Origin: Candidatus Binatia bacterium
Lineage (GTDB): Bacteria > Desulfobacterota > Binatia > HRBIN30
Direction: 5' to 3'
Length of the DNA: 64,000 nt
Assembly: GCA_038245295.1 (NCBI GenBank)
Contig: JBBRSP010000012.1
Location: forward strand, 64,001 to 128,000
In this document: piece after piece, positions 50,788 through 58,561 of the stretch
Layout of the letters: every line of letters starts with the position of its first letter
Numbering within the stretch: the first letter of the stretch is position 1
Made by a program: the position numbers and the translations under genes
The notes under the pieces: generated by a model
Told to the model about the DNA's origin: nothing
Seen by the model: only the letters and a program-made list of their open reading frames with translations
The model's database searches: none

Positions 50788-50961
50788 CTACTCCTCGTCA
50801 TCGTCCTCATCATCGTCATCATCCCAATCGTCATCATCGTCATCGTCATCGCCGTCGAGATCGTCATCGCCGTCGAGATCGTCATCGTCGCCGAAATCGT
50901 CGTCATCTTCGTCCTCGCCATCGTCTTCTTCGCGCTTCTTCAACCACCACGGATGCAGCAT
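50788..50961 (-). CDS. 57-aa hyper-acidic small protein
   Basis: AAAGGAGG RBS before ATG 50961; MLHPWWLKKR followed by an almost pure Asp/Glu tail; co-oriented with neighbours. Confidence 0.65.
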   Translation of the reverse strand: MLHPWWLKKREEDDGEDEDDDDFGDDDDLDGDDDLDGDDDDDDDDWDDDDDEDDDEE

Positions 50962-51033
50962 GGGGACACCCCTCCTTTCCGACTTGAGCGCCAAAGCGAC
51001 TACCGGCAGCATTTCTCAAAGTCAACCGACACA

Positions 51034-55588: not shown

Positions 55589-56350
55589 CTACTCCTCTTC
55601 GGGCGGGACCAAGAGTGCTTCGCCGAGCGTCTGGATCAACCAGCGATGAGCATCGCCGAAGCGCTTCTCCCAGCCGGGCGACGAGAGCATCGCGTGTGAA
55701 GCTTCCACGGAGACGAAGTCGGCGCCGATGCCCTGGGCGAGTTGACGTGCAGCGTCGAATGGTGTGAGGCGATCGAGAATTCCAGCAACCACCAGCGCTG
55801 GGGTGTCCTGTCGCACCGGTGCTGGCCAGTTACCTTGGAGCAGGAACTCTACCACTCGTCTTGGCTCTGCAGTCGTCAAACCCGATATGCCGCCATCGAA
55901 AAAGGACGATCCCGCATTGGACGGGGGCACCGAAGGTGCGGCGGTACGGAGGCCAAGCCAAGAGCGCGGGATACGGATCGGCAGCGTTTGCCCGGAAAGC
56001 GACGGAGGTAGGATGGGCGCGATCGCTATCGAAGCGCGCGCCAGTTTGCGGCAACGTAGCGCCAGCCAGCCACCCAGGTCGTGACCGATGAGGATCGGTG
56101 GTGACGGAAATTTCAGGATTAGATGCGTAAGGGCGGACTCGTACGCGTCGAAACCATTCGCCGCGGAGATCGCGGCTGCGCGCGGCAACGTTACGGCATG
56201 ACAGGTCCAACCACGATGAGCGAGGAACCCCATCGCCCGACGCCAAATCGCCGCTGTCGACCACAATCCATGCACCAGGACGAGAGATGCCGTGAACTTG
56301 GCGCTCTGGGCGGCAATTGTGTCAATCTCTAATTCGTCCCCGAATTCCAT
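55589..56350 (-). CDS. Alpha/beta hydrolase fold protein, nucleophile Ser apparently replaced (GHDLGG)
   Basis: LVHGLW; PILIGHDLGG; DRLTP; SHAML. Confidence 0.75.
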   Translation of the reverse strand: MEFGDELEIDTIAAQSAKFTASLVLVHGLWSTAAIWRRAMGFLAHRGWTCHAVTLPRAAAISAANGFDAYESALTHLILKFPSPPILIGHDLGGWLALRCRKLARASIAIAPILPPSLSGQTLPIRIPRSWLGLRTAAPSVPPSNAGSSFFDGGISGLTTAEPRRVVEFLLQGNWPAPVRQDTPALVVAGILDRLTPFDAARQLAQGIGADFVSVEASHAMLSSPGWEKRFGDAHRWLIQTLGEALLVPPEEE

Positions 56351-56366: not shown

Positions 56367-56402
56367 AAAACAAAGAGGCCATCCAATTGGATGGCCTCTT
56401 TG
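56367..56402 (-). terminator. Intrinsic terminator downstream of the basic microprotein gene
   Basis: Perfect palindrome caaagaggccatccaattggatggcctctttg (56371-56402), T-run after it on the minus strand. Confidence 0.8.
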
Positions 56403-56475
56403 CAGAGCCCGGAGGCCCAAGTCTGAGGGGAGGGAAAAATCTCTGGCCTGTGAATGGCCTCAGTTCGGAACCGGA

Positions 56476-56550
56476 CTACTTCTTCTTCTTCGGAGCGGCC
56501 TTTTTCTTCGCAGGAGCCTTCTTCTTCGCTTTAACCTTTGCAGCTGCCAT
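56476..56550 (-). CDS. 24-aa Lys/Ala/Pro-rich histone-H1-like microprotein (MAAAKVKAKKKAPAKKKAAPKKKK)
   Basis: Hand translation; GGAGG 5 nt before ATG; upstream promoter and downstream terminator; below the ORF-track cut-off. Confidence 0.8.
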   Translation of the reverse strand: MAAAKVKAKKKAPAKKKAAPKKKK

Positions 56551-56656
56551 AGGAACCTCCCTTTAGAATTCGATCAGAGTCTGACTTCAATTCAAACTCC
56601 CTCTCCCTCAGACCGTCTCCACCTCACTCAACCATCCACCACCAGTTTCAGGAGCG

Positions 56657-56686
56657 ACTATAAATGCCCAAGGGCTTCGTTGTCAA
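56657..56686 (-). promoter_or_regulatory. Near-consensus sigma70 promoter driving the microprotein
   Basis: Minus strand TTGACA-N18-TATAGT. Confidence 0.7.
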
Positions 56687-57271
56687 CAGAATAATACCGT
56701 TTCTGAGAACTTTTTTTAAAACGGAAAGAGCCTGCACCCGTTACCTTTTTCGGCACCCTAAAATGTCGTTTCGCGATATGATAGCCGCCGAACAACAGAA
56801 GTGTTCTATGCAACCCTCCACAGGTCGGCGAGATAGTTTTCCACAACCGCACGGTATATCGCAACGCGAGCAAAGGATGGATGAATCATTCAGGGTGAAG
56901 CAGCAAAGTAGCCACGCTTATTGCAGGGCCGGGCTGGGGCGCGCCGTGGAAGGGACCCCATACCCCTGCATACCAGGCGCACGAGCACACGGGGCGCCAT
57001 CCAAATGCCGCCGGCCCAAAAAATCCGGGGATTGTCACAGATGAAAACTATTCATCCCCCTGAGGATGTGATGTGACTTCAAGATCGCGCACGACAAGCG
57101 GCTTCGGAGACGACAGCAGGCGCGCCCTATTGCCCAACGGTGGGCGTTTGATTCGCCCAAGTCGGAAGCGACTCAGCCGGCCCCTCACACGTGACGCAGC
57201 GCATTATGCGAGTGCGTGGCACCAACGCCGCCGAGATTGAGCGGCAACGGCACGCTCATGGGCGGCCTTCT

Positions 57272-58561
<1,290 letters not shown>

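Follow-up and report, generated by a model that had tools for sequence, protein, structure and literature searches.

What does the short interval between an enolase gene and an alpha/beta hydrolase gene encode in this Candidatus Binatia genome, and what might its product do? The window, by which we mean the whole 64,000-nt stretch of DNA that was analysed, had been described in an initial annotation as carrying on its minus strand a promoter, a ribosome-binding site, a 24-aa ORF and a terminator, and all four are present in the sequence (Table 1). The -35 and -10 boxes are separated by an 18-nt spacer and match 11 of 12 consensus positions, and the predicted transcription start at approximately 56649 leaves a leader of 99 nt up to the ATG, close to the estimate of about 100 nt given at the outset. 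The strict consensus TTGACA-N16-18-TANART occurs at two sites in the 6.6 Mb genome, this promoter being one, and of the two it alone is preceded by an upstream A-tract, which we take to resemble an UP element. Among the curated relatives a promoter of the form TTGAC-N16-20-TANNNT was found in 41/52 loci. Upstream of the -35 box, at 56687-56721 (minus strand) and in relatives, the A-tract is followed by TTTCCAAAA and then by the near-palindrome AATGG/CCATT; this arrangement is conserved class-wide and may represent an UP element together with a regulator site. The terminator hairpin, described earlier as perfect, is indeed a perfect palindrome of 32 nt with a U-rich tail, and in relatives 9 of 12 pairs of its stem show two-sided changes. 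It was absent from the output of a simple terminator scan, probably because the perfect stem includes part of the T-run.

Table 1. Features of the transcription unit and its neighbours, in window coordinates
Feature	Position	Strand	Basis
A-tract / UP-element-like sequence upstream of -35	56699..56721	-	Class-wide conservation; this copy somewhat diverged
-35 box TTGACA	56681..56686	-	Sequence
-10 box TATAGT, then GC-rich discriminator	56657..56662	-	Sequence
Helix P1, 5' strand (G/U-rich transcript 5' end)	56630..56645	-	Covariation, slid controls, folding
Helix P2, 5' strand	56597..56613	-	Single-sequence fold, alignment fold, covariation
Shine-Dalgarno GGAGG	56556..56560	-	SD-like motif ahead of ATG in 52/52 curated loci
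ORF, 24-aa Lys/Ala/Pro peptide MAAAKVKAKKKAPAKKKAAPKKKK	56476..56550	-	Translation; conservation in relatives
Helix P1, 3' strand; overlapping GGCC...GGCC can form alternative 4-bp local hairpin H	56443..56459	-	
Helix P2, 3' strand	56421..56436	-	Single-sequence fold, alignment fold, covariation
Small hairpin P3 before terminator	56405..56418	-	5 pairs, 94.5% of cells paired
Intrinsic terminator: perfect 32-nt palindrome (56402-56371) and U-rich tail	56367..56402	-	Sequence; covariation
Enolase, upstream neighbour (context only)	57272..58558	-	Pfam PF00113/PF03952
Alpha/beta hydrolase, downstream neighbour (context only)	55589..56350	-	Pfam PF12697

The frame and the ribosome-binding site, whose conservation in relatives the initial annotation had put forward as one test of its proposal, are kept throughout: a Shine-Dalgarno motif stands 4-8 nt ahead of an in-frame ATG in 52/52 curated loci, and in every one of them at least three Lys or Arg residues directly precede the stop. 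Over the eight codons of the core KKKAPAKK (49 loci), the Ala and Pro codons use three or four third bases, with two amino-acid changes, and the family favours T- or A-ending Ala and Pro codons (GCT 0.26 vs 0.09, and CCT 0.32 vs 0.08, in the long ORFs of this genome). From this pattern we infer that the peptide is translated. As first noted, half of its residues are lysine (12/24); it has a pI of 11.0, a charge of about +12 and no acidic residue, and of the genome's 266,533 start-to-stop candidates with 12-70 aa its ORF is the richest in Lys. The histone-H1-like makeup claimed for this single copy extends to the 52 curated peptides, the composition of which is strongly basic and dominated by Lys, Ala and Pro (K 53%, A 29%, P 6%, Arg 1.3%, Asp and Glu zero). 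Family lengths, which are set by the number of repeats, span 15-126 aa overall and fall within 21-39 aa in 49/52 curated loci, while the long members (106-126 aa) are built of tandem KKKAAPKKK-like or KKKAT-like repeats and are as large as a free H1-like protein.

Reading of individual loci identified the unit in 69 Ca. Binatia genomes, a total made up of the 52 curated loci, 18 of 19 further regions (with two duplicate genomes) and one extra locus; in those 18 of 19 regions a Lys-rich ORF of 15-126 aa was again accompanied by a Shine-Dalgarno motif and a terminator. A DNA search gave matches in 47/61 genomes, this genome counted, and the ORF was present in 30/30 of the loci retrieved from these matches. 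A class-wide DNA search matched 89/201 genomes, with many matches spanning Lys codons only, and loci were therefore read one by one. Within the order to which this genome belongs, the unit was verified in 43 of the 51 relatives searched, with six lacking a match and two giving weak matches. A pattern combining the ORF end with the 3' motif was run over GTDB genomes and returned 34 matches, of which 26 were true units and eight were chance matches when the loci were read; by title, 14 of the 26 are Ca. Binatia, eight carry general names only and four bear other submitter names. In the phylum outside Binatia, a first loose pattern gave matches at chance level only, and a strict pattern, which also misses class members known to carry the unit, matched 2/291 genomes, one of these being the tail of a 201-aa protein. 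A phage origin was considered and rejected: the pattern SD-ATG-KKKAPAKK gave at least 120 viral-contig matches (L099-L218), mostly N-terminal tails of longer, different proteins, and while some ORFs of 22-44 aa among the viral matches listed are almost wholly basic, none except one 22-aa ORF is a pure Lys/Ala/Pro peptide like the family.

The neighbourhood is partly conserved as well. Within flanks of about 1.5 kb, enolase lies upstream in 13/52 curated loci and an alpha/beta hydrolase lies downstream on the same strand in 33/52, in both cases across several families, and this recurrence points to vertical inheritance of the unit. The same arrangement raises the question of whether the ORF could be a lysine-sensing leader peptide, an attenuator for the downstream gene, as half of its codons specify Lys and a terminator follows, with the hydrolase on the same strand in those 33 loci. 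We consider this extremely unlikely. The downstream gene lies outside the lysine pathway and in family f4 differs or is convergent, so that, in place of the conserved cognate biosynthetic or transport operon that marks an amino-acid attenuator, an alpha/beta hydrolase or other genes are found there; moreover, the stop codon is about 75 nt ahead of the terminator, ORFs of 106-126 aa exist and no conserved antiterminator was seen.

Part of the stretch is present in eleven public RNA runs. In the four runs that were compared, contigs approximately 95-98% like the window lie within 56371-56638 (4/4), ending at 56630-56638, and among the pieces listed none extends beyond the predicted start or the terminator. 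The unit is covered by RNA from close relatives. No close RNA contig covered the flanks of the unit in the same four runs, and this confinement of the contigs argues against DNA carry-over. Over 12 kb around the tmRNA gene, these runs likewise gave long pieces on tmRNA and none on the adjoining genes. The runs were chosen for containing this stretch and the contigs are assembled ones, and they consequently speak for presence rather than for expression level. Taken with the near-consensus promoter and the conservation described above, the RNA contigs over the unit bear out the proposal of a stand-alone gene as a real, conserved coding unit.

Several known RNAs were considered as identities for the transcript and rejected. 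A role as substitute for 6S RNA was dismissed on the ground of co-occurrence: G053 and G106 carry both the unit and a 6S match over cut-off, each on a contig of its own, and family f9 does so with 6S matches that are weaker. In this genome there was no match to RF00013 (6S), against matches in 13/61 class genomes, but the assembly also lacks rpsL and gene absences are therefore weak evidence. A variant of tmRNA or RNase P was set aside, since both a tmRNA and an RNase P-like motif are present at other sites in the genome. As a separate observation, several Binatia families are without any RF00013 hit, and a diverged 6S may have gone unrecognised in the class; a spacer of approximately 430 nt at G000:C30:73400-73840 (L225), between an ftsY-like gene and a gene that flanks 6S in relatives, gave no Rfam 6S match.

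To which known proteins, then, might the peptide be related? No match was found in Pfam, NCBIfam or PDB for short or long members, and none of four short or medium and two long members reached the cut-off of the Hc2/HC2 models (PF07382, NF038052), both negatives being blunted by low-complexity filters. Genome-wide searches with HC2-type profiles gave matches at other loci and none at this one. The 17 distinct family sequences tried had no exact match in a collection of 15 billion proteins, from which very short proteins or these genomes may have been omitted. The ESM Atlas does contain a 112-aa form of the family, the model of which has a pLDDT of 0.38 and a pTM of 0.14, values that refer to this long form and not to the 24-aa peptide; the Atlas clusters nearest to it consist of hypothetical proteins, one with 15% HC2 members, which we regard as a lead only.

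In composition the closest parallels are with the histone-like proteins of other bacteria. Like chlamydial Hc2 (HctB), Hc1 and Bordetella BpH1, the peptide is a low-complexity Lys/Ala/Pro chain of repeat-dependent length. Hc2 is described as consecutive pentamers with two positive residues in a protein of 165-237 aa, Lys-rich repeats account for length variation in both Hc2 and BpH1, and BpH1 is reported to be expressed in exponential growth and dispensable (PMC2848022). In contrast to Hc2, the Binatia family is usually 21-39 aa and 15-126 aa overall, has no acidic residues, and carries Lys in clusters of 3-5 spaced by AP or AA rather than in regular two-charge pentamers. The C-terminal domains of Pseudomonas AlgP and PhaF share the H1-tail-like composition, and peptides of the AlgP KPAA repeat are reported to bind DNA in vitro (PMC9239181). 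In AlgP and PhaF, however, the tail is attached to a folded N-terminal domain, whereas the Binatia ORF is the basic tract alone and has no KPAA repeat. Judged on its sequence, the peptide is best classed as a putative H1-tail-type protein that stands outside the Hc2 and AlgP families. Since it is expected to have no fold, and only charge and spacing are kept over an eight-fold range of length, it would be a non-specific polyanion binder rather than the occupant of a fixed pocket, and by analogy with the proteins above DNA would be its likeliest partner.

Other polyanions could be envisaged in place of DNA, as the observations are compatible with DNA, RNA and polyphosphate alike. AlgP, with its tail of Lys/Ala/Pro repeats, is reported to associate with polyphosphate granules (PMC9239181), and the Binatia peptide might bind polyphosphate or other polyanionic granules in the same manner. 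This appears very improbable, given that the peptide lacks an N-terminal counterpart of the AlgP targeting domain, and that ppk1 was found in 3/5 genomes (incomplete assemblies), this genome not among them, while all five carry the peptide gene.

A stronger contender is RNA. The peptide could be mainly an RNA-binding polycation, that is, an accessory ribosomal protein, a partner of the ribosome surface or of hibernating ribosomes, or an RNA chaperone, its expression being tied to that of the translation machinery. The A-tract and GC-rich discriminator of its promoter are in keeping with this, being features that we take to resemble those of growth-controlled rRNA and ribosomal-protein promoters, and its usual size of 21-39 aa (49/52) matches that of the smallest basic ribosomal proteins. 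Of these, bS22, Thx and eL41 have 20-35 aa, are very basic and Arg-rich, and are of near-fixed length. The Binatia peptide is likewise tiny, very basic and easily overlooked by gene callers, but it is rich in Lys with almost no Arg (1.3%), and matches no family or solved chain in Pfam, NCBIfam or PDB. A repeat-dependent length of anything between 15 and 126 aa is also a poor fit for a fixed ribosomal pocket. On balance we regard the RNA-binding role as rather unlikely, and retain DNA as the preferred partner.

The initial annotation did not consider RNA structure beyond the terminator. Conservation was found to extend from the ORF into both UTRs, which are mutually complementary and are predicted to pair in two long-range helices, P1 and P2, so that the transcript appears to be a structured RNA as well as an mRNA. 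P2 joins the leader to the segment just upstream of P3 and the terminator, and is 11-16 bp long across relatives. In the alignment fold, 10 of its 16 pairs have changes on both sides, and when RNAalifold was run independently on 12 loci belonging to other orders, P2 was obtained again, with two-sided change in 2/11 pairs. Genus g9 has an unrelated perfect 15-bp helix in its place. Energetic comparisons point both ways. In favour, a locus's own 5' and 3' strands average -35.8 kcal/mol, compared with -29.6 for swapped pairs; against, the strongest partner proves to be that of the locus itself in only 5/47 loci for P2 and 2/47 for P1, and the whole-transcript fold is only slightly better than shuffles (z -1.6). 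As shuffle z-scores are weak for both helices, it is covariation that carries the structural claim. On this ground, pairing of the 5' and 3' UTRs through P2, recurring class-wide, is predicted. In family f12 (L079, L082-L086, L088 and L090), 8/8 aligned loci share another 3'-UTR motif, GCUAGGCACGUA, for which no partner strand was found. The transcript had no match in Rfam, where the best scores, 19-20 bits, fell on the terminator end only.

P1, formed by the G/U-rich 5' end of the transcript, is of narrower distribution. Over 27 loci 97% of cells pair, with two two-sided pairs; over 31 loci 92% of cells pair, compared with 28-49% when the partner was slid, and six pairs are two-sided, three of them resting on one poorly aligned row. 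The clean two-sided changes come from about two clades. P1 appears in the minimum-energy fold when P2 is blocked, but its duplex energies are no better than those of shuffled partners (z mostly 0 to -1.8), and it is lost outside the order and in genus g9. Local hairpins occupy the place of the P1 3' strand in family f3 and genus g9, and hairpin H, the alternative that overlaps this strand here, has a single two-sided change among 31 rows. At the start of the leader, its first 30 nt (56620-56649 on the minus strand here) contain at least four GG runs in 46/47 loci, including those where P1 is lost, and two-tier G-quadruplexes or standby ribosome sites are possible at this G-rich start; at least two anti-SD-like sites occur in the first 45 nt of 42/47 leaders against 10/300 random 45-mers, a comparison confounded by G-richness.

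The strands follow one another in the order P1-P2-ORF-P1'-P2', and the two helices therefore cross. In the taxonomic order of this genome, the ORF would thus lie in the loop of a pseudoknot formed by P1 and P2. With each helix making about 1.5 turns, their coexistence would need the 3' end to thread through after release, and alternating folds or intermolecular pairing are equally open, in place of both helices forming at once.

A precedent for this architecture is available in Bacillus subtilis, where hbs encodes the nucleoid protein HU. In the hbs mRNA, the 5' UTR is reported to pair over 14 bp with a stretch that immediately precedes the terminator, and this pairing restricts RNase Y cleavage and hence RNase J1 entry; a compensatory mutation restored the effect of pairing, and the authors state that pairing in trans could not be excluded (PMC5737220). 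The Binatia unit resembles hbs in its strong Shine-Dalgarno sequence, in a 5'-UTR segment predicted to pair just upstream of the terminator (the covarying P2, of comparable length) and in its presumed nucleoid protein, and the genome encodes RNase Y, RNase J and RNase III together with four HU/IHF genes. It differs in protein and phylum, and its mRNA adds the crossing 5'-end helix P1 and an extra 3' hairpin. Controls of a related kind exist elsewhere: chlamydial Hc1 is controlled by the sRNA IhtA (PMC4355289, PMC3469542), and the 5' and 3' UTRs of Staphylococcus aureus icaR pair with each other (PMC3868564). We found no published work on this Binatia gene or RNA in the literature searched, which covered a limited set of journals.

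The extent of this structure could instead mean that the transcript acts chiefly as RNA, in the form of a stable, structured molecule with conserved UTR motifs that bind a protein or mediate intermolecular pairing, and that the peptide serves as its counter-ion or as an autoregulator that shifts the H, P1 and P2 folds. Within the order, conservation of the UTR motifs equals that of the ORF, and two crossing helices with an alternative local hairpin are predicted; the coverage of the unit and of tmRNA by relatives' RNA contigs, with no long piece on flanking genes, is a weak hint in the same direction. Between orders, however, and even within family f1, the UTR sequences turn over although the peptide core is retained, Rfam gave no match, and the hbs precedent explains a long-range helix with no separate RNA function. 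Hfq, a possible binder of AAG repeats, was found in 0/5 genomes, which further counts against the RNA as main product and led us to reject a role as an Hfq sponge. This alternative is therefore a quite doubtful one.

A combination of the two activities can also be imagined, in which a dual-function RNA, either a pseudoknotted clamp or a head-to-tail multimer with P1 and P2 formed between molecules, encodes its own polycation; the peptide would bind the clamp, shift the balance of H, P1 and P2 and thereby adjust its own amount, and the RNA would form a nucleoid-organising condensate with it. Such a device is decidedly speculative and has a slim chance of being right; if it is, no smaller self-contained 'linker-histone' system would be known from bacteria.

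The reading that we favour, with moderate confidence, is that the peptide is an accessory nucleoid polycation of H1-tail type, made from an mRNA with an hbs-like clamp. The near-consensus sigma-70 promoter would give rise to a transcript of about 280 nt, a step for which the promoter is seen directly and transcription is seen in close relatives. The strong Shine-Dalgarno sequence would direct translation of a disordered peptide of approximately +12 charge, as coding-type conservation suggests. The peptide would neutralise and bridge DNA without sequence specificity, aiding nucleoid compaction by HU/IHF with a strength set by repeat number, as its composition and the analogy with BpH1, Hc2 and AlgP lead one to expect. 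P2, and in this taxonomic order also P1, would join the 5' and 3' UTRs, as covariation supports, and the resulting clamp might limit RNase Y entry and 5'-3' decay by RNase J in the manner of B. subtilis hbs mRNA, thereby setting the amount of a peptide whose excess would do harm.

Other charged or repetitive elements were noted in the course of this work. A second stand-alone H1-like ORF, of 66 aa, lies at G000:C4:261400-262500 (L251, minus strand 433-633 as oriented); it has PAKK/KPAA repeats and a WWKRN tail and is the genome's best sub-threshold HC2 hit. The product of locus L091 (G056:C80:16754-19847) is 200 aa long, its Cys/His-rich N-terminal part being followed by an extended tail of KKKAVAKKKAAP repeats, and the gene has its own terminator. 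In the window itself, at 50788-51012 on the minus strand and about 5.5 kb away, a 74-aa ORF ends in a very long Asp/Glu tract, and is in charge the opposite of the Lys-rich peptide. A REP-like repeated palindrome of 26-34 nt occurs in six copies on contigs C7, C10, C12 and C24 of G000.

If confirmed, these findings would mean that Binatia, bacteria of soils and sediments, carry a conserved core gene that is absent from the family libraries searched, in which the H1 tail is pared down to between one and three repeats and which occurs in natural variants of 15-126 aa; this length series makes the minimum length of polycation needed for nucleoid compaction directly testable. Trypsin would by computation cut the peptide into pieces of five residues or fewer, making it invisible to routine proteomics, by which an abundant chromatin component could have been overlooked. 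Its transcript would likewise represent a structured RNA family absent from Rfam and, after hbs, a second independent case in which the mRNA of a likely nucleoid protein is clamped by pairing of its UTRs.
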